Below, piece after piece: positions 3,239 to 13,552 of a stretch of DNA of 20,000 nt. The DNA is from an uncultured virus (IMG/VR IMGVR_UViG_3300042564_004671). Its lineage: Duplodnaviria; Heunggongvirae; Uroviricota; Caudoviricetes. Positions within the stretch are counted from its first letter, which is position 1. Every line of letters begins with the position of its first letter. The translations under genes were made by a program, and so were the position numbers. The notes under the pieces were generated by a model. That model saw nothing but the letters and a program-made list of their open reading frames with translations. It was not told the origin of the DNA and did no database searches. The stretch lies in the IMG/VR virus record IMGVR_UViG_3300042564_004671. The stretch is one strand, 5' to 3'.

Positions 3239-5230
3239 TTAACTTTCATATTGTTTAATCTTATCTTCAAGATATTCAATTGTTTTCTTTTTAATTTCAG
3301 GTGATGTTTTTCTACTATGACTTAACCAAGTTAAAGCTGCTTTGAATCCACCTTTAACACCTTTTTCTATCATTATATCAATGAAATCTAATCTACCATA
3401 CTCTGCTGCCCATTTAACTGGCATGTTTCTACCAGAATCATCTGCTAATTTAGCACCATACTTAACAAGTAATTGGAATACATCTAAGTATCCTTCTCCA
3501 ATATCATCAATATTTTTCCAACCACCTCTACAACATCTTCTTATTGGAAGTGAGTTGTCAAAGTTAGGATTTAATCCTTGTTTCAAACAATATTCAACAG
3601 CATTAACATCATTACAAATATTATTAAATACTTCTCCTGTTAATTCAGAACCATTAGATACCAATAATTTAATCATATCTAAGTCTTGAGCTTTATTAAC
3701 AATAGCGTCTGCTTTACTTCTTAAGTTTGGAGAACCACCTAATTCTAAAATAACTTTAGCTTTCTCGTGATTGTTTTCTTCAACAGCATGTAAGAGAGCT
3801 ACACAATTATCTTTATTGATATTAGCGCCATCTTCTTTAACATATTGTTTAATCTTTTCAATTGAAAGTCCTTTCTTAACTATTTCTCTTTCAGCAAGTT
3901 TTGCTCTTTCTCTTCTAGTGATTTCTTCTTGAGTCATTGGTTTAAGCTGAGCAAAAAGATCTTCCTTAATATCATATTCACCTTCCCATTTTTTAAGAAG
4001 ATTTTTAATTGAACTAAGAATATTAGCGTCGTCTTTAGCATGAGCCGCTCTTACTGATTGACCTGGTTGAATAGTAATACCAATAGTAGATAAGTTATCA
4101 TATTGAGGAATATTAAAGTTATAAATATAATATTGTTTGTTATTATGGTTACCAACATAGTTTTCCCACTGAGAAGAATAATCTTTAATACAATGTCGTG
4201 TATGACCATTTAACATCTGATTAGCTTGAAAAGACTTAACTTCAATAATTAAGATACCATTATCTTCAAATACGGTATCAGAACCTAAGTAACCATACTT
4301 CTCATTACAAGCATTAATCTTATCATAAAAAGCAATAATTGAATCATTTTCTGATGATTTCAAGTAGTTCTGAGCCGCTTTGATAAACTCTCTAATATTT
4401 TTATATCTGAAAAGAGGTCCGAAATATCTTTTATCACCTTTCTTATAAGCTTTACCATGAATAACTTGGTCAGCATCAATTATTCTAACCTCACCAAAGA
4501 ATGATTTCCATAGTCTTTCTTTTTTAACTTCATCTTTACCACCTAATTGATCAAATCCTCTACAAACTTCAGCAAATTGGTCTTTAATAACTTCTGGTGA
4601 ATCCATATAATCTTTTTTCAACACCGGAGTTAATTTATCAATTACTTTTTTAATTTTTTTATAATCCTCTAAACTATCTAATCCATCAATAAGTGCCTCT
4701 GCATTATTTGGAATATTTGGATCGATAAAATTAGCATCAAACTTTTTAGGAAGTCTATCAAGTAATCCAGAATATTCAACAAGTTTAGATAGAATGTTAT
4801 TAGGTGCTTCAATTTCTTTACCATCAACTTCAATTTTCTCTACTCTTGTAAATAACTCTTCCATTGAAACCATCTCAACAAAAAAGAAATAAGTAAATGG
4901 ATAAGTCCACCCTATGTGTTTTTGACCTAAATACTCTCTAATCTTTAAGAAGTCTGGATTTCTCTCAATATTTCTTACTTCTTCATCTTTTAGTCTAAGT
5001 TCTCTTAACTTTAATTTGATCTCACTTTGTTGTTCTGGAGTAAAGTCACCTAAAGTCAAACATCTTTTTTCTTTATGATCCAACTGAGCTTTTAACTCAC
5101 CTTCAACAAATCCAAGGTTAGTAGCAGCAGTAGTTAACAAATAAGTATCTTTCAAGAATTTTTTAGCCTTATCAAGATTTTCGTTTAATGGTTTCTCACC
5201 TAAAAATTGATTATATTTAAATAGTTTCAT
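3239..5230 (-). CDS. ankyrin-repeat protein (663 aa) with capsid-targeting-like leader
   Basis: C-terminal ankyrin-like units (GANINKDNCVALLHAVEENN, DMIKLLVSNG, QLLVKYGA, PVKWAAEYGRLDFIDIMIEKG). Central HCIK..SQWENY..QYYIYNF domain. Starts MKLFKYNQFLGE. Confidence 0.8.
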   Translation of the reverse strand: MKLFKYNQFLGEKPLNENLDKAKKFLKDTYLLTTAATNLGFVEGELKAQLDHKEKRCLTLGDFTPEQQSEIKLKLRELRLKDEEVRNIERNPDFLKIREYLGQKHIGWTYPFTYFFFVEMVSMEELFTRVEKIEVDGKEIEAPNNILSKLVEYSGLLDRLPKKFDANFIDPNIPNNAEALIDGLDSLEDYKKIKKVIDKLTPVLKKDYMDSPEVIKDQFAEVCRGFDQLGGKDEVKKERLWKSFFGEVRIIDADQVIHGKAYKKGDKRYFGPLFRYKNIREFIKAAQNYLKSSENDSIIAFYDKINACNEKYGYLGSDTVFEDNGILIIEVKSFQANQMLNGHTRHCIKDYSSQWENYVGNHNNKQYYIYNFNIPQYDNLSTIGITIQPGQSVRAAHAKDDANILSSIKNLLKKWEGEYDIKEDLFAQLKPMTQEEITRRERAKLAEREIVKKGLSIEKIKQYVKEDGANINKDNCVALLHAVEENNHEKAKVILELGGSPNLRSKADAIVNKAQDLDMIKLLVSNGSELTGEVFNNICNDVNAVEYCLKQGLNPNFDNSLPIRRCCRGGWKNIDDIGEGYLDVFQLLVKYGAKLADDSGRNMPVKWAAEYGRLDFIDIMIEKGVKGGFKAALTWLSHSRKTSPEIKKKTIEYLEDKIKQYES

Positions 5231-7816: not shown

Positions 7817-8248
7817 ATGAAAAAAGCGTATGTTATTTTAAAAAAAGGATTTGAGTATGATGATAACATCTACAATGAATCAGATGGTGGTACACCAAAT
7901 CTAATTGTATTTTCTAAAGAAGATGCTCAATTAAAAGTAAATGAATTAAATATTCAAGAATTAAAAAATTGTTCAATATCAGAATACTCATATGATATGG
8001 AAGATATTCTTAATGTAGAAATTGATGAATATGATAAATTCAACGAATCTCTAAATACCAAGTATGGTAAACCAGAATCTAAAAATAGATGGGATTCATT
8101 TGAGAATAAACTACATCCAATGGCTAATGAAGAAGAAGCTAATCAATATGTTAAAATGGTTTCTATTAGTTTTTACGAGGCTGTTGAAACGGATATTGAT
8201 GTTCAATCTCTTAGAGAAAAACAAGTTTCTAGTATTTTAGACAAGTAA
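7817..8248 (+). CDS. hypothetical protein (143 aa)
   Basis: ORF starts 1 nt after the upstream stop; ends LREKQVSSILDK. Confidence 0.7.
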   Translation: MKKAYVILKKGFEYDDNIYNESDGGTPNLIVFSKEDAQLKVNELNIQELKNCSISEYSYDMEDILNVEIDEYDKFNESLNTKYGKPESKNRWDSFENKLHPMANEEEANQYVKMVSISFYEAVETDIDVQSLREKQVSSILDK

Positions 8249-8756: not shown

Positions 8757-9323
8757 ATGAAAAGATTTTCAGATATTAAAAAAGTAAAAGTTAAAAAAAT
8801 CAACGAAGCCGAAGGTGAATCAAATTTACCTTCAAACTACGAAGATATGTCAAAAGAAGAACTTTTAGCTCTTATGTCAGGTAAAAAAGAACAACCTGAA
8901 CCAGAAAAGAAAGAAGAAGAAAAGAAAGAAGTATCTAACGAAGGTGGTGATGTTTCTAAATTCATCTCTAAATTGTTAGAAAGTAGAGAGATGGCTCAAG
9001 TTTATCACTGGACGGTTAAAGGTGATATGGGTTCACACGCAGCTCACTTAGCATTAGAAGCTTACTACAGTGGTGTTATTGAATTTATTGATGATATCGT
9101 TGAGGTTTATCAAGGTCAATATGGTTTAATTGAAGGATATGATCAAATTGCTACAGATGAAACAAGATCTAAAGATAAATTGGATTACTTCAAAGAAGTT
9201 GTTGAATTTGTTAAATCAGAAAGAAGTTGCATTAAAGTAGAAGATACACACTTACATACTATAATAGATGAGGTTGTAGTTCTTATTTACAAAACAATCT
9301 ACAAATTAACTTACAATAAATAA
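8757..9323 (+). CDS. ferritin/Dps-like four-helix protein (DUF5856-like) with N-terminal extension
   Basis: AQVYHWTVKG...SHAAHLALEAYY...FIDDIVEVYQGQYG...IIDEV is a Dps-like H-W...H...D-x-x-x-E pattern. About 65-aa charged N-terminal extension. Confidence 0.75.
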   Translation: MKRFSDIKKVKVKKINEAEGESNLPSNYEDMSKEELLALMSGKKEQPEPEKKEEEKKEVSNEGGDVSKFISKLLESREMAQVYHWTVKGDMGSHAAHLALEAYYSGVIEFIDDIVEVYQGQYGLIEGYDQIATDETRSKDKLDYFKEVVEFVKSERSCIKVEDTHLHTIIDEVVVLIYKTIYKLTYNK

Positions 9324-9324
9324 A

Positions 9325-9873
9325 ATGAAACACATTAAAAAACATCCTATTAATGATAAAGCTCAGAAGCTTTCAAAGGATATAAAAAAACAAGATCATA
9401 GTAAACCAGCATCAAAAAAGAAATTAGACGCTGATAAATCTTTAAGTGATCCTGAGGTTTCAATGAAGGTAACTAAACCATCAAATAAAAAATTAAATGG
9501 TGAAAAGTTTTTATCTAACCCTACAATCAATACTAAAAAGCCTAATAAACCTTCTAATAAAAATTTAGATGGTGAGAAGTTCTTAGCAGAAGGACTTAAT
9601 CATTTAAAAAGATTCAATGAAGAATTCGATTCAAGTGGATATCAATCACACTGGACTAAATTTGCTCAATGGTTATGGGAAAAAGACTTTGAATTATATG
9701 GTGGTGGAGAAGACCTTCACAATAAATTTATGGAAGTATCTAATGATGATAACTTATCATCAGAAGATAAAGCTAGTCAAATTACAAATTATTTAGATGA
9801 AAAATGGGGAGTCTATGATGGATATATGTCAGTATATAATTATTTAGAATCTTTATTCATGGATGAAATTTAA
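9325..9873 (+). CDS. hypothetical protein with basic repeat N-half and acidic C-half
   Basis: 182-aa ORF; three 24-aa-period repeats, then internal HLKRFNEE. Confidence 0.7.
   Translation: MKHIKKHPINDKAQKLSKDIKKQDHSKPASKKKLDADKSLSDPEVSMKVTKPSNKKLNGEKFLSNPTINTKKPNKPSNKNLDGEKFLAEGLNHLKRFNEEFDSSGYQSHWTKFAQWLWEKDFELYGGGEDLHNKFMEVSNDDNLSSEDKASQITNYLDEKWGVYDGYMSVYNYLESLFMDEI
9403..9585 (+). repeat. three degenerate 72-nt (24-aa) repeats
   Basis: KPASKKKLDADKSLSDP / KPSNKKLNGEKFLSNP / KPSNKNLDGEKFLA starting at 9403, 9475 and 9547. Confidence 0.8.
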
Positions 9874-9875
9874 CT

Positions 9876-9904
9876 AAAATCCCACTTAATAAGTGGGATT
9901 TTTT
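9876..9904. terminator. bidirectional intrinsic terminator
   Basis: AAAATCCCACTT-aat-AAGTGGGATTTTTT between convergent genes. Confidence 0.85.
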
Positions 9905-10143
9905 ATTTCTATAGTTCCGTAAAAGTTATTATTTATAATCTTTTTAGAGTATCTACTCATAATTGATTTACTTGGTGAGAATTCATCTTTAACATCTAAA
10001 CCTAAACCAAATATCTTATTAATCTTTCTTTTTCTACTTACATTCTTAGAAGTATATCCAGATATAACAGAAGTGGTTGTCAATGGAATATAAGGAGCAA
10101 AAACATAACCTTGTTCTAAATTACTTTTCTTTCCTATTATCAT
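9886..10143 (-). CDS. 85-aa protein resembling the C-terminal segment of a gp23-like major capsid protein
   Basis: GYVFAPYIPL and FSPSKSIMSRYSKKIINNNFYGTI match the gp23-family G-x-x-Y-A-P-Y-x-P-L ... F-x-P-x-x-G-x-x-T-R-Y pattern. Confidence 0.65.
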   Translation of the reverse strand: MIIGKKSNLEQGYVFAPYIPLTTTSVISGYTSKNVSRKRKINKIFGLGLDVKDEFSPSKSIMSRYSKKIINNNFYGTIEIKNPTY

Positions 10144-10279
10144 TGAATATTTTTTTAATTTTTTCTTTTCTTTTATCTTTTCTAAGAAAAGAACTTAAAA
10201 AGTTCATAGAAGAATAGTCATGTAATCTACTTCCAGGTCCACCTAGTACAACATTCCACTCATCTCTCGCTTTTATCAT
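10121..10279 (-). CDS. microprotein, 52 aa (not in ORF track)
   Basis: MIKARDEWNVVLGGPGSRLHDYSSMNFLSSFLRKDKRKEKIKKIFNDNRKEK; overlaps both neighbours and fills an apparent gap. Confidence 0.6.
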   Translation of the reverse strand: MIKARDEWNVVLGGPGSRLHDYSSMNFLSSFLRKDKRKEKIKKIFNDNRKEK

Positions 10280-10394
10280 ATAATCTTTTGATTTTATTTT
10301 TTCTCTTTTCAGATCTTTCTTTTTTAGACCATCTGAAAATTGAATCTGTTATAGACTCTTGAAACTCTTTTGATTGATTTTCCCAAATTGACAT
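10260..10394 (-). CDS. microprotein, 44 aa (not in ORF track)
   Basis: MSIWENQSKEFQESITDSIFRWSKKERSEKRKNKIKRLYDKSER; starts 22 nt after the stop of 10417..10734. Confidence 0.6.
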   Translation of the reverse strand: MSIWENQSKEFQESITDSIFRWSKKERSEKRKNKIKRLYDKSER

Positions 10395-10416
10395 AAATAT
10401 TATACAATAAAATTAA

Positions 10417-10734
10417 CTACTTGTTTTCTGTGTACATATACTTTCTACCAGTATCATTATAATCCATTAGATTATTAACAACGGTATCAATCTTATCTTT
10501 AGAATCATCAACATCTTTTTTGATAACTTGAAGCGCAGCAATTGAATCATCTATCTGATCATTTCCTTTTTTAGAATCACTTTTGAAATTATTTAATTCA
10601 TTTAGTAATGATTCTACTGATTTTGATTTATCATCCATGATAGAAGCAAAGTCTTTTAACTCCTCAATAATTTCTGCTACTCTTTCTGATGAAATATCTA
10701 CTTGTTCATCTTCATTGAATCTTCTAATTTTCAT
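10417..10734 (-). CDS. coiled-coil protein with capsid-targeting-like leader
   Basis: MKIRRFNE followed by heptad-like amphipathic helices. Confidence 0.7.
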   Translation of the reverse strand: MKIRRFNEDEQVDISSERVAEIIEELKDFASIMDDKSKSVESLLNELNNFKSDSKKGNDQIDDSIAALQVIKKDVDDSKDKIDTVVNNLMDYNDTGRKYMYTENK

Positions 10735-10751
10735 ATTAATAGTTTAATATT

Positions 10752-10767
10752 TTAATATATATATTAA
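10752..10767. promoter_or_regulatory. palindromic bidirectional late promoter
   Basis: TTAATATATATATTAA contains TAATATATA on + (10753-10761) and on - (10758-10766) between divergent genes. Confidence 0.7.
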
Positions 10768-10769
10768 TT

Positions 10770-11453
10770 ATGAAACGTAAGAATAAGCTTATATTAGAAT
10801 TCACAGAATTTAACATGCAAAGAATGAACCCTGATTCAGCGGCTCAAACAGTTGGAGGTGTAGATGATCCGTCATTATCAACAAATGCCTTTGATAAACA
10901 CTCAGACGCTATTAGACAAGCGATGGGTAGAATTAATGACATCCTTTATAATCTTAGTGGTACAAGTGCTTATAAAAATCTTAGAAGTAGATTAGCATTA
11001 GAACATCAAGATATTCAAAGTATTAAAATTCTAAGAATTGTTAAGAATGAAATTTACTATGATGCTTATATCACGTTCAAAATTGATGATTATGAATACT
11101 GGGGAGTTATTGAAAATGTAATGAACGCAAATCCAGAATTAACATCAGAAGTATTCAAAGATTATGACCTTTATCAAAGTAAAGAATGGGTTATTAAAAT
11201 AAAAGGATTAGTAGTTAAGACTATTAAAACTTGGTTAAAACCAGAGCCAGGAATATACAGATTATTAAATGATGAAATCATTTGTTACTCTACTGAAACC
11301 GGCAAACAACTTAAAATGGATAAAGGAATCGAAATCGAGTTAATAAGATCACATAGTGATAAAATTATCATTAAACACGAATCAGATTATTACAACTTAG
11401 TTGGTGATAATTATGTTTACTTTAACTGGTGGTTTGAGAAAATTGAAGATTAA
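10770..11453 (+). CDS. hypothetical protein (227 aa)
   Basis: Long ORF behind a late motif; N-terminus MKRKNKLILEFTEFN. Confidence 0.7.
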   Translation: MKRKNKLILEFTEFNMQRMNPDSAAQTVGGVDDPSLSTNAFDKHSDAIRQAMGRINDILYNLSGTSAYKNLRSRLALEHQDIQSIKILRIVKNEIYYDAYITFKIDDYEYWGVIENVMNANPELTSEVFKDYDLYQSKEWVIKIKGLVVKTIKTWLKPEPGIYRLLNDEIICYSTETGKQLKMDKGIEIELIRSHSDKIIIKHESDYYNLVGDNYVYFNWWFEKIED

Positions 11454-13552
11454 ATATCTTTTGGTTTCTTCAATGGTTCAACAATAACTCTACCATTATC
11501 ATCAGTCCATTCCGTATCATACATATGTTTATCATGTCTTTCTCCGATTACCATCCAACTAATCTCATCAGAAGAAGTATTTGACTCGGATATTATCTCA
11601 AGTATATTTCCAGTAACTTTTCCTTTAACAGGTGTCCATCCTGTTTCATTTGTTGTAAAACATTGAACATCTCTATTTAATAAAACAAAAGTGCCTTCAG
11701 TCATATTTGAAGATTCATCTAAATTAATTTCAGATTTACCATTAACTAAGGATACTTTTCCTCTATAGATCAAATCAGCTTTAGGACCTTCAATGAAGGA
11801 GTGTACTAATTCATATTTATCTTTCATAGATTCAATTGGATGATCAATTCTAAAAGATCCACTACCCTTACTTAAACTACCAGTAACAGATGCATTTGAA
11901 CTAATGAAGAAATTTTGTTGACCTGTCCAATCTATTGAACATAACGCATTTGAAGAAATAACCGTATAACCATTACCAAGAGATAAGTCATATTTGTTTA
12001 TAGTCAATGTGGCGTTATTTAATGGTGAGTGTATGATAATATCAGTAGCACCTCCTTGTTTTATCTCCAATTTTTTAGTACCACTTGTGCTAAAAGCAAT
12101 AACATTAGCACTTGGCATATACATACCACTTTGAGTATATCCATACCATGTGTAATCAGGAGCCGCTGCCGTTGAAAAAGAAGTACTGACAGCACCTACC
12201 TGTATATAAGGAGATTTAGTTGTAGTACCTGTACCTAAACTAGTAGCTGTTGTAAATACAACACCACCATTTCCAGCATTTGTTCCTTTAATATGCATTC
12301 TAGGTGTTCCATTTGTAGTAAATGCTATTTGATTAGTAGTAGGTCTATAAATACCAGTATCAATATCACCAGTAAATGTAATAGATGGAGCTGTTGGAGT
12401 ACCATTACTATACCTTATTGGTGAAGTACTAAGAGAATATGTAGCATACAATCTAAATGGAACAGATCCACTTACTGAAAATCCAATAAATGGAGCTGTG
12501 TAAACTATTGGAGAAGTACCCGGAATTGCTGTATCAACACCAGCTCCAAATATACCAGAATCATTACCAAAAGCAATAGGTGGATTATCAGGTCCATTAA
12601 GTTCAGCACTACCAAACATAAGACCTGTAAGGTAATAGGTAGGTAATAACATTTGAGCAGTAACTGAATTAAATGCGAACCCAGTCCCTCTAGAATTATT
12701 GTAATAAGTACTAACACTAGCACCATTCACATTAGAAGCCGTAGATGAAAACATCATATATTTTAATCCACTCGAAGAAGGTGAGACTTGTGAATTATAA
12801 ACAGTAACGGTGGAAGCTGTTTTAGATCTATCAGAAATTATATTAGTAATCTGACTACCATCTCCTTTAAAGAAACCACTTGTTTTTATATTTCCAGTAA
12901 CATCTAAAATCTCTGCAGGTAAAACAGTAGAGCTCCAATTTGAACCAATACCAACTTTATTATTATTTGAAAGATAAATGGTTTGAACAGGAGCTCCTGA
13001 ACCACCTGGTCTATTTGATATAGATAAATCTCCTTGGTCATTACCAAAGCTAATCAATGAAGAACCCTTAGATGAGTTAAAATAACCATTACCACCGACA
13101 AAACCAGTATAATACCAATTAGAACCAATAATGGTTGTTCCACCTTTATGTATAACCAATGGAGGTGCTTGACCCGCAACATAATTAGGATCTTCAGCAA
13201 GACTCATTCCACCAAACTGCATATAGGTATTATTACCAGTTGGATTATTAGTACCAACACCAATTCTTTTTTCAGTACCTGTGCTAACCTGGAAAACTCC
13301 ACTATTTCCTATATAATTTTGAGATGTAAATAAAGGAACATATCCAGCTACCCCATTAACTTGGTCAGTTATTTCGGCACTGAAGGTAGTGCCATTATAA
13401 TAGTATGATCTATTATCAGATGTATCAAAAACTCTTAGACCAGTATATTTATATGGTATTGAATTTCTAGCAGCAGCACCAGATGCGACTATTCTATTAT
13501 CCAATGGAGTTGAATTATTTACGGTGAATCCTGTTATTATTTGTATTGACAT
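11450..13552 (-). CDS. tail fibre / receptor-binding-like virion protein (700 aa)
   Basis: G/S/T/N-rich; IGVGTNNP and VGIG..LDVTGNIK shaft motifs; GTPTAPSITFTGDIDTGIYRP-type repeats; C-terminal SFRIDHP...HSFIEGP...YRG...WMVIGER domain typical of fibre ends. Confidence 0.8.
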   Translation of the reverse strand: MSIQIITGFTVNNSTPLDNRIVASGAAARNSIPYKYTGLRVFDTSDNRSYYYNGTTFSAEITDQVNGVAGYVPLFTSQNYIGNSGVFQVSTGTEKRIGVGTNNPTGNNTYMQFGGMSLAEDPNYVAGQAPPLVIHKGGTTIIGSNWYYTGFVGGNGYFNSSKGSSLISFGNDQGDLSISNRPGGSGAPVQTIYLSNNNKVGIGSNWSSTVLPAEILDVTGNIKTSGFFKGDGSQITNIISDRSKTASTVTVYNSQVSPSSSGLKYMMFSSTASNVNGASVSTYYNNSRGTGFAFNSVTAQMLLPTYYLTGLMFGSAELNGPDNPPIAFGNDSGIFGAGVDTAIPGTSPIVYTAPFIGFSVSGSVPFRLYATYSLSTSPIRYSNGTPTAPSITFTGDIDTGIYRPTTNQIAFTTNGTPRMHIKGTNAGNGGVVFTTATSLGTGTTTKSPYIQVGAVSTSFSTAAAPDYTWYGYTQSGMYMPSANVIAFSTSGTKKLEIKQGGATDIIIHSPLNNATLTINKYDLSLGNGYTVISSNALCSIDWTGQQNFFISSNASVTGSLSKGSGSFRIDHPIESMKDKYELVHSFIEGPKADLIYRGKVSLVNGKSEINLDESSNMTEGTFVLLNRDVQCFTTNETGWTPVKGKVTGNILEIISESNTSSDEISWMVIGERHDKHMYDTEWTDDNGRVIVEPLKKPKDI

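Follow-up and report, generated by a model that had tools for sequence, protein, structure and literature searches.

A stand-alone gene for the P-domain hairpin of a gp23-type major capsid protein, with a clade-wide peptide inserted at the P loop, in an uncultured lake phage

The 20,000-nucleotide stretch of DNA analyzed here (the window) is part of an uncultured caudoviricete, IMG/VR record IMGVR_UViG_3300042564_004671, in which it occupies G000:C1:52933-72932 of a 175,660-bp virus record (G000). On its minus strand lies ORF1, an 85-residue open reading frame (ORF) that forms the last of three overlapping micro-ORFs (ORF3, ORF2, ORF1; Table 1), with 20 nt shared by ORF3 and ORF2 and 23 nt by ORF2 and ORF1. 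A preliminary description of the window, made from the letters alone, had portrayed ORF1 as a gene with its own start, set in an overlapping microgene array far from the head genes and ending in a terminator. All of these statements hold: the ORF starts with ATG and contains the quoted peptides exactly, its last codons and stop codon lie within the stem of a 12-bp hairpin whose pairs are kept through compensatory changes in 11 relatives, and the full major capsid protein (MCP) gene is ~53 kb away, the MCP, protease and portal genes being located at 116-125 kb of G000 and ORF1 at 62.8-63.1 kb. A terminator scan found 2 terminator-like sites where shuffled sequence gave 0.2 on average. The record carries T4-type hallmarks (a Gp23-family MCP, portal, prohead protease, TerL, sheath, clamp loader, a gp55-like late sigma factor, and UvsX-like, Rad50-like and Mre11-like proteins), and at least half of the sampled words of the stretch were present in 18 lake-water metagenome runs, 3 of which are possibly the source sample.

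Table 1. Positions of ORF1, its parts and neighbors, and the other capsid-segment genes. Coordinates are those of the window unless preceded by G000. AF2, AlphaFold2; HMM, hidden Markov model; pLDDT, predicted local distance difference test.
Feature	Position	Strand	Description
ORF1	9886..10143 (G000 62818-63075)	-	85 aa, ATG start; P-domain hairpin of gp23-type MCP, helix inserted at tip; internal tag
Block 1, IGKKSNLEQGYVFAPYIPLTTTSVI	10063..10137	-	aa 3-27 of ORF1; first P-domain strand, T4 gp23 ~438-456 including A455
Predicted helix	10009..10047	-	aa 33-45 of ORF1, AF2 pLDDT 83-94 per block; sits at P-loop position
Tag RKRKINKIF	10009-10035	-	aa 37-45 of ORF1
Block 2, KDEFSPSKSIMSRYSKKIINNNFYGTIEIKN	9898..9990	-	aa 52-82 of ORF1; second P-domain strand and following segment, T4 gp23 from ~465
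Nucleotide-conservation island	9886..10030	.	Tag, block 2 and terminator
Bidirectional intrinsic terminator hairpin	9876..9902	.	12 bp; common to ORF1 and a convergent 182-aa gene
ORF2	10121..10279	-	52 aa, tag KRKEKIKKIF at end; tail overlaps ORF1 start
ORF3	10260..10394	-	44 aa, tag KRKNKIKRLY at end; homologues in L100, L101, L115, L116
105-aa gene	10417..10734	-	Heads same-strand run (105 aa, ORF3, ORF2, ORF1); syntenic in relatives
a165	G000 20622-21119		MCP N-terminal region, HMM 18-117; basic tail
d258	G000 100199-100975		MCP C-terminal half; no tag
b71	G000 102988-103203		71 aa, minus strand, HMM 309-363; tag NRKNSINKIF; PF07068 40 bits, above cut-off
c249	G000 110230-110979		MCP C-terminal half; tag

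Several searches place ORF1 at the C-terminal end of gp23-type capsid proteins. Its residues 4-75 align with positions 306-354 of the 376 in the Pfam profile Gp23 (PF07068; E 6.5e-4), with a score of 19.7 bits that lies below the gathering cut-off of 24.4 bits. A tblastn search of 50,697 phage records found matches in 13 of them (E <= 4e-3 in 7, best 2e-6); 11 lie over the 3' end of a gene annotated as capsid, and the other 2 records carry no annotation. The best alignment sets 72 query residues against just 50 subject residues. With a custom hidden Markov model (HMM) of 565 positions, built from eight canonical full-length MCPs and the phage's own MCP, ORF1 scores 62 bits in two blocks, positions 502-528 and 531-561, and phmmer from ORF1 likewise matched full-length MCPs at their C-termini. 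In the ESM Atlas, 29 of 30 matches fall in clusters named for the Gp23 domain, and the two clusters shown (78 and 82 aa, 66-72 members each) are entirely viral. The Pfam, tblastn and custom-HMM results support the preliminary description in its view that ORF1 derives from the C-terminal segment of a gp23-type MCP, stands alone as a gene and contains a basic peptide as an insert.

The two blocks bracket a well-characterized part of the capsid protein. Aligned through the canonical MCP P0096, block 1 corresponds to residues ~447-456 of T4 gp23 and block 2 to residues ~467-477. According to PMC9546572, A455 lies in the sheet of the P domain, and T457, R460 and G461 belong to the P loop, which makes the quasi-threefold contacts of three capsomers and in which mutations alter head length. 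The blocks were said to stand about 33 residues apart, and the measured spacing from L21 to F55 is indeed 33, compared with 10 in T4 gp23 (L456 to F467), so that the insert is real and amounts to about 23 additional residues, with a predicted helix (RKRKINKIF) that is basic and amphipathic. Because the blocks map to 447-456 and 467-477 and the P loop holds 457-461, these alignments establish ORF1, at the level of sequence, as the P-domain beta-hairpin of a gp23-type MCP with the insert exactly at the P loop. It does not comprise a complete HK97-type fold (N-arm, E-loop, spine helix, A domain and P domain), its match being limited to the two HMM blocks.

ORF1 is a member of a large family. An exhaustive phmmer search from ORF1, counted as cluster representatives, returned 167 at E <= 1e-3, 26 at E <= 1e-10 and 1 at E <= 1e-30, mostly of 60-130 aa; ORF1 lies within this range and retains both blocks. 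When the best 150 of the 167 were sorted with a crude motif script, 45 were small proteins (<= 150 aa) with a long loop, 32 of them with a tag-like motif, and 49 were small with the native short loop, some of the latter being clearly truncated MCP gene calls and others having unrelated N-termini. A further 10 were full-length MCPs (>= 300 aa) matched at the C-terminus, 3 were of middle length (151-299 aa), 21 had block 1 only, and in 12 neither block was recognized. The remaining 10 are circular permutants, in which block 2 is followed by a linker, block 1 and the tag; here the old termini are joined, and block 1 followed by the tag is retained. Such a permutation would preserve the hairpin, and might be tolerated under structural selection. 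In the family alignments (A1, 31 rows; A6, 117 rows), the conserved residues are those of the MCP (G12, P17, Y18, R64, Y65, Y75), and ORF1 begins with I-G-K-K-S, the equivalent of L-x-G-x-K-G in the MCP.

Close homologues reside on related phage contigs of 89-476 kb. Six full-length homologues (L097-L101, L103) are 36-87% identical to ORF1, and those at L115-L121 are 57-91% identical over the C-terminal 50 residues. The gene is syntenic in L098-L101, L103, L115, L116, L119 and L121, the usual order being a tail-fiber-like gene, a 227-aa gene, the 105-aa gene, one or more tagged micro-ORFs, ORF1, the terminator and a convergent DUF5856 gene; it occurs in other gene contexts in L097 and L120. 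By the Nei-Gojobori method, comparison of ORF1 with four syntenic relatives and L097 gave dN 0.13-0.16, dS 0.18-0.36 and a dN/dS ratio (omega) of 0.45-0.77, whereas the neighboring 105-aa and 227-aa genes gave dS 0.9-2.1 and omega 0.07-0.14; the omega of ORF1 is high because its dS is low. With intact rather than frameshifted homologues, a conserved start, synteny, and dN far below the dS of its neighbors, ORF1 is not debris, as had been surmised from the window alone. A locus search from A1, with a pattern drawn from block 1, returned true MCP genes, a locus scan with database protein P0013 found no relative, and megablast of window positions 9000-11500 against phage records gave no match. 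We found no description of stand-alone capsid-segment mini-genes in the full-text literature on capsid fragments, small ORFs, capsid decoys and inhibitory fragments, subscription journals lying outside the scope of that search. As the family is unnamed, its members now carry the label 'hypothetical' or are wrongly assigned to a capsid domain.

The peptide inserted at the P loop is a tag that recurs throughout the clade. A strict form, R-[KDEQRN]-x-[KRS]-[IL]-x-x-[IVL]-[FLY], occurs 17 times in the 210 greedily called ORFs of G000; 15 copies lie 1-7 residues from a C-terminus, and ORF1 is the sole small protein with the motif inside. With a looser pattern, 14 of the 210 ORF tails match, whereas 2000 shuffles averaged 0.29 and never exceeded 3; in the related record G007 (385 kb, 95% complete) the motif closes 24 of 482 ORFs, whereas 1000 shuffles averaged 0.056 and never exceeded 2. 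Typically, the motif stands 1-8 residues before the C-terminus of ~5-7% of the ORFs in the clade. The peptide had been noticed as common to other small proteins of the window, which is correct for ORF2 (KEKIKKIF) and ORF3 (KNKIKRLY). ORF1 also contains the form that defines the tag set, R-[KDEN]-x-K-I-x-[KQ]-I-[LF], placed not at the C-terminus but 40 residues from its end (41 in the G007 homologue); in the circularly permuted family members the tag is C-terminal.

Copies of the tag vary in synonymous codons and in the codons for I/L/V and F/L/Y. Because of this codon variation, and because the tag of the capsid-segment gene b71 is the most conserved part of its family, the tag is selected at the protein level, as a short linear motif. 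We rejected, as its main cause, the possibility that the tag is a by-product of the leader of the next gene. Gene leaders in G000 are A-rich and contain only 3-9% G, and hence no Shine-Dalgarno signal, and many tags adjoin the next ATG; against this, the hydrophobic positions vary among ATT/ATC/ATA/CTA/GTA and TTT/TTC/TTA/CTT/TAT, the arginine codons of the b71 tag vary among CGT/AGA/CGA/AGG although it is the most conserved peptide, and the internal tag of ORF1 has no following start. A T4-type clamp-binding tail is also unsupported: no gp45 C-terminal domain was found, and the C-termini of the polymerase pieces and of the gp55-like protein do not hold the motif. The tag may also resemble PIP-box, MinD and ClpX motifs. 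Putative resemblances of other tagged micro-ORFs to the TerL Walker-A motif, PolB motif B and the adenylate-kinase P-loop received no support from Pfam or BLAST, with one weak exception (G000 3501-3683, below).

Two other tagged ORFs deserve mention. A 143-aa ORF at 7817-8248 on the plus strand of the window has a variant form of the C-terminal tag, LREKQVSSILDK, at its end, and its homologues end in REKKITEILN (L100) and RENQINEILN (L101). In a 60-aa tagged micro-ORF at G000 3501-3683 (minus strand), the stretch IVLDHIGMINQSKSK is identical at 9 of 15 positions to the UvsX-like protein that this phage encodes (E 0.035, the database being small), and this may be another gene that consists of a fragment plus a tag.

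ORF1 is not the only capsid segment in this genome. Searching G000 with PF07068 and the custom HMM revealed one full MCP gene (116028-117779) together with the capsid-segment genes of Table 1. One of these, b71, comprises a strand, a short helix and the start of the spine helix of the MCP; the T4 gp23 region aligned with it holds a short acidic P-domain helix and the beginning of the spine helix, according to PMC9546572. It is flanked by genes of 447 and 413 aa, is syntenic in 4 of 5 related records (loci L108-L111), and evolves as an ordinary constrained gene; its homologues form 29 clusters of 44-71 aa, of which 26 have a precomputed PF07068 hit. The same kinds of pieces recur in G001, G003, G005, G006, G007 and G008-G011, and relatives contain further tagged classes, a spine-helix piece and an A-domain piece (L144 1492-1867, L146 1405-1608). 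In the database protein P0056, an A-domain piece, a tag, the hairpin and a second tag follow one another in a single chain. These results show that ORF1 belongs to a conserved suite of MCP-segment mini-genes.

The resident MCP is not the closest relative of these segments. Over the aligned profile columns, ORF1 is identical to the eight canonical MCPs at 27-30 of 58 positions (47-52%), values inflated by the choice of these MCPs as ORF1 matches, and to the phage's own MCP at 13 of 56 (23%); for b71 the counts are 17-22 of 55 and 13 of 53, respectively. BLASTP of ORF1 against the own MCP gave 40.6% identity over 32 aa (E 0.006). The alignment to the genome's own MCP that the preliminary description had suggested as a check thus has just 13 of 56 positions identical, and it is the canonical MCPs that the hairpin resembles instead. 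The hairpin of the own MCP is nearly identical in G007, and because of this conservation we regard the resident MCP as a stable, different lineage. By these comparisons, the ORF1 hairpin resembles canonical gp23-type MCPs and not the divergent MCP of its own phage. No second full-length Gp23 paralogue of the gp24 kind was found in G000, G006 or G007. In G011 (344 kb, 91% complete), which carries ORF1-type and A-domain mini-genes (loci L103 and L146), PF07068 detected no full MCP with a cut-off of E <= 0.01; its own MCP would then be either more divergent or encoded in the part that the record lacks.

Around ORF1, the array is plastic, since ORF2 is variable, missing or replaced in relatives and, in database protein P0003, its first eight residues (MIKAKDEW) are fused directly onto an ORF1-type protein. 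The 22-nt gap between the 105-aa gene and ORF3 contains an extended -10-like hexamer, TGTATAAT, at 10399-10406 on the minus strand, 5 nt upstream of the ATG of ORF3. Elsewhere, G000 encodes an unusual set of RNA- and protein-handling functions (ribosomal protein S21, Ro60/TROVE with a vWA domain, RNase II, an NFACT-R domain, DnaJ, an Hc1 histone-like protein and Sir2), three DNA methyltransferases, two homing-endonuclease-like genes, and a T5orf172 gene that adjoins a165. At G000 85315-88422, the family-B DNA polymerase looks split: a 509-aa ORF contains the exonuclease domain and the beginning of the polymerase domain, and after an oppositely oriented ORF of 126 aa comes a 336-aa ORF that may be the missing part.

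We tentatively propose, at somewhat less than even confidence, that the product of ORF1 acts in trans as a native-like fragment of the capsid protein, most plausibly against the canonical-type capsids of rival phages. The strands of ORF1 would pair with the P domain of an unassembled gp23-type capsid protein and would present a charged helix in place of the P loop, where it would block or misdirect the joining of capsomer to capsomer, and the tag would dock ORF1, like the other tagged proteins, to one shared partner. Because the ORF1 hairpin is canonical-like and unlike that of its own phage, the likeliest target would be the capsid protein of co-infecting canonical T4-type phages; for the same reason, its dissimilarity to the own MCP, we favor interference with rival heads over a role in self-assembly. 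That a fragment of a protein may inhibit the parent by contacts like the native ones is reported in PMC9245647 and PMC10769210. In a wider and rather unlikely form of the proposal, large lake phages would carry a natural dominant-negative arsenal, in which the canonical T4-type MCP is distributed over at least five mini-genes (N-arm, E-loop strand with short helix, spine helix, A-domain segment and P-loop hairpin), most with the docking helix, that poison the folding or assembly of rivals' capsids and spare the phage's own divergent MCP.

Several observations weigh against the proposed action on rival capsids, in addition to the Pfam score and the choice of canonical MCPs given above. ORF1 is located outside the head module. 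The structure predictions do not contain the hairpin: with 31 and then 117 aligned sequences, AlphaFold2 (AF2) gave a mean predicted local distance difference test (pLDDT) score of 69.6 and 79.4, and the models consist of helix 33-45 and a 4-residue turn, the remainder being extended chain. Foldseek with the better model found nothing (best E 5.4), a profile search of the PDB from A1 yielded nothing beyond a chance GntR row (E 0.33), and the best PHROGs match of ORF1 had an E of 0.15. As AF2 predicts no fold beyond the helix, the models would fit a partner-dependent fragment; a predicted complex of b71 (alignment A3) with ORF1 (A1) scored 0.00, and, being without controls, weighs neither way. 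Zinc ribbons, a P-loop kinase-like protein and numerous small proteins of unrelated kinds bear the tag too, and the function of ORF1 may for this reason be driven by the tag and unrelated to capsids. Finally, pairwise omega spans 0.24-0.77 across all pairs, and the suppressed synonymous divergence points to an additional or alternative role at the nucleotide level, or to gene flow.

This last observation raises the alternative that a nucleic acid is the main selected object, as a 3'-derived small RNA, a DNA site, or an island of recombination and gene flow, with the peptide secondary. At positions with the same residue, ORF1 and its relatives have identical codons in 55/65, 60/65, 53/64 and 53/63 cases, against 43.4, 40.5, 43.6 and 38.9 expected from the neighbors matched by amino acid (P <= 0.005 each, the four comparisons being non-independent), and rare codons are fixed among 11 relatives (AAG at K40 in 11/11, TAC at Y75 in 10/10). 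Nucleotide identity to four relatives peaks in the island that covers the tag, block 2 and the terminator, reaching 0.82-1.00 within 9900-10030 (0.70 at the terminator edge for L099 and L101), compared with mostly 0.55-0.90 in the flanks (0.55-0.78 for L099). Short contigs with 8-16 differences also cover 9872-10137 in two lake DNA runs, and the sister gene b71, as a negative control, exhibits no such excess (14-27 identical codons of 29-38, against 17-24 expected; P 0.16-0.91). Gene flow, a small RNA and a DNA site are all possible causes of this conservation. On the other side, no RNA structure was supported in the ORF1 region beyond the terminator, the best match in Rfam 15 had 24 bits against a gathering score of 55, and G000 holds no second copy of the island and no long complementarity to it. 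Under the island, 8 of 11 relatives keep the antisense frame open (L101 and L121 have interruptions, and the reading in L120 is uncertain), but we discarded this frame as a gene because it has no ATG, GTG or TTG start. In two metatranscriptome runs, contigs of relatives (85-95% alike) extend over ORF1, although these may reflect DNA carry-over, and neither transcription nor strand nor ends can be read from contigs; stretches that these runs leave uncovered were given no weight. The wider family retains its amino-acid pattern at 40-60% identity, where conservation of the DNA is impossible, and because of this we take a protein-level function to be primary across the wider family and allow a primary role of the nucleic acid only a small chance.

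If the peptide is what matters, it might act on the host rather than on rival phages, with tagged MCP segments serving as a decoy or sponge that binds host capsid sensors and blunts or mistimes abortive defense. Avs7, Avs8, Avs10 and Dsr1 sense MCPs directly (PMC13581612), CapRel is reported to be an MCP-sensing receptor as well (PMC9712102), and the mini-genes, which encode the best-conserved segments of the MCP, are located among non-structural genes. We consider this unlikely, since fragments that resemble canonical MCPs would mimic a protein that this phage does not make, and a free capsid fragment could equally trigger the sensor.

Alternatively, ORF1, b71, a165 and the 249- and 258-aa halves might contribute split or accessory HK97-fold parts to the head of this phage, assembled together with the MCP or next to it, either as minor capsid, vertex or cement components or as aids to P-domain folding. 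The pieces tile the Gp23 profile (26-61, 127-185, 174-305 and 303-354), G006 and G007, relatives that are 95-97% complete, carry the same suite, the three genomes named above have no gp24-like paralogue, and T4 gp31-bypass mutations map to the P-domain sheet and the spine helix (PMC9546572). However, the pieces are dispersed across >90 kb, with non-structural genes around them, their sequences are nearer to canonical MCPs than to the own MCP, and some relatives hold different subsets of them, all of which leaves this explanation a slim chance. Least probable is a selfish or near-neutral remnant, in which capsid fragments recombined in at tag-coding junctions and persist as translationally coupled micro-ORFs that have no function of their own: the overlapping array with its variable or absent ORF2, the other contexts of ORF1 in L097 and L120, the homing-endonuclease-like genes (one adjoining a165) and an omega as high as 0.77 would suit it, but 167 intact relatives, a conserved start, conserved MCP residues, circular permutants and tag-less variants that retain both blocks, dN well below the dS of the neighbors, and the ordinary constraint on b71 argue to the contrary.

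If the fragments do act on capsid proteins, as we tentatively prefer, they would constitute a natural case of fragment-based interference between viruses, and could also provide peptides directed at those contacts of T4-type heads that are best conserved. Whether or not they do, the presence of one helix on ~5-7% of the ORFs of the clade implies a common hub protein or address system in the infection cycle.

The nearest known system is T4 gp23 itself (PF07068; 5VF3, 6UZC, 7VS5, 8GMO), with which ORF1 shares the G-Y-x-x-A-P-Y and S/T-R-Y motifs. Unlike gp23, ORF1 spans 58 of ~565 profile positions, is without N-arm, E-loop, spine helix, A or I domain, replaces the P loop by 33 residues that include a basic helix, and is encoded outside the head module. 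The vertex protein gp24 of T4 is likewise a second gene of MCP lineage in one phage, which arose by duplication of the capsid gene, and it figures among the PDB relatives of a canonical MCP; gp24 is, however, a complete HK97-fold subunit of the shell, whereas ORF1 is a single hairpin and its suite consists of segments. Small proteins of satellites, such as P4 Sid, SaPI CpmB and PLE TcaP, bind the capsid protein of another element and alter its assembly. Their likeness to ORF1 would be one of function only, for they are scaffolds from satellites and not copies of capsid segments from a large phage, and ORF1 had no Pfam or PHROG hit to such capsid-redirecting proteins, no search by name having been made. 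The principle proposed here is that of engineered dominant-negative fragments, which, in the sections available of PMC9245647 and PMC10769210, inhibit their parent protein in a native-like manner; those sections describe laboratory constructs of bacterial proteins, with neither a natural phage example nor a shared docking tag among them, whereas ORF1 is a natural phage gene whose product bears a shared, putatively docking, tag.

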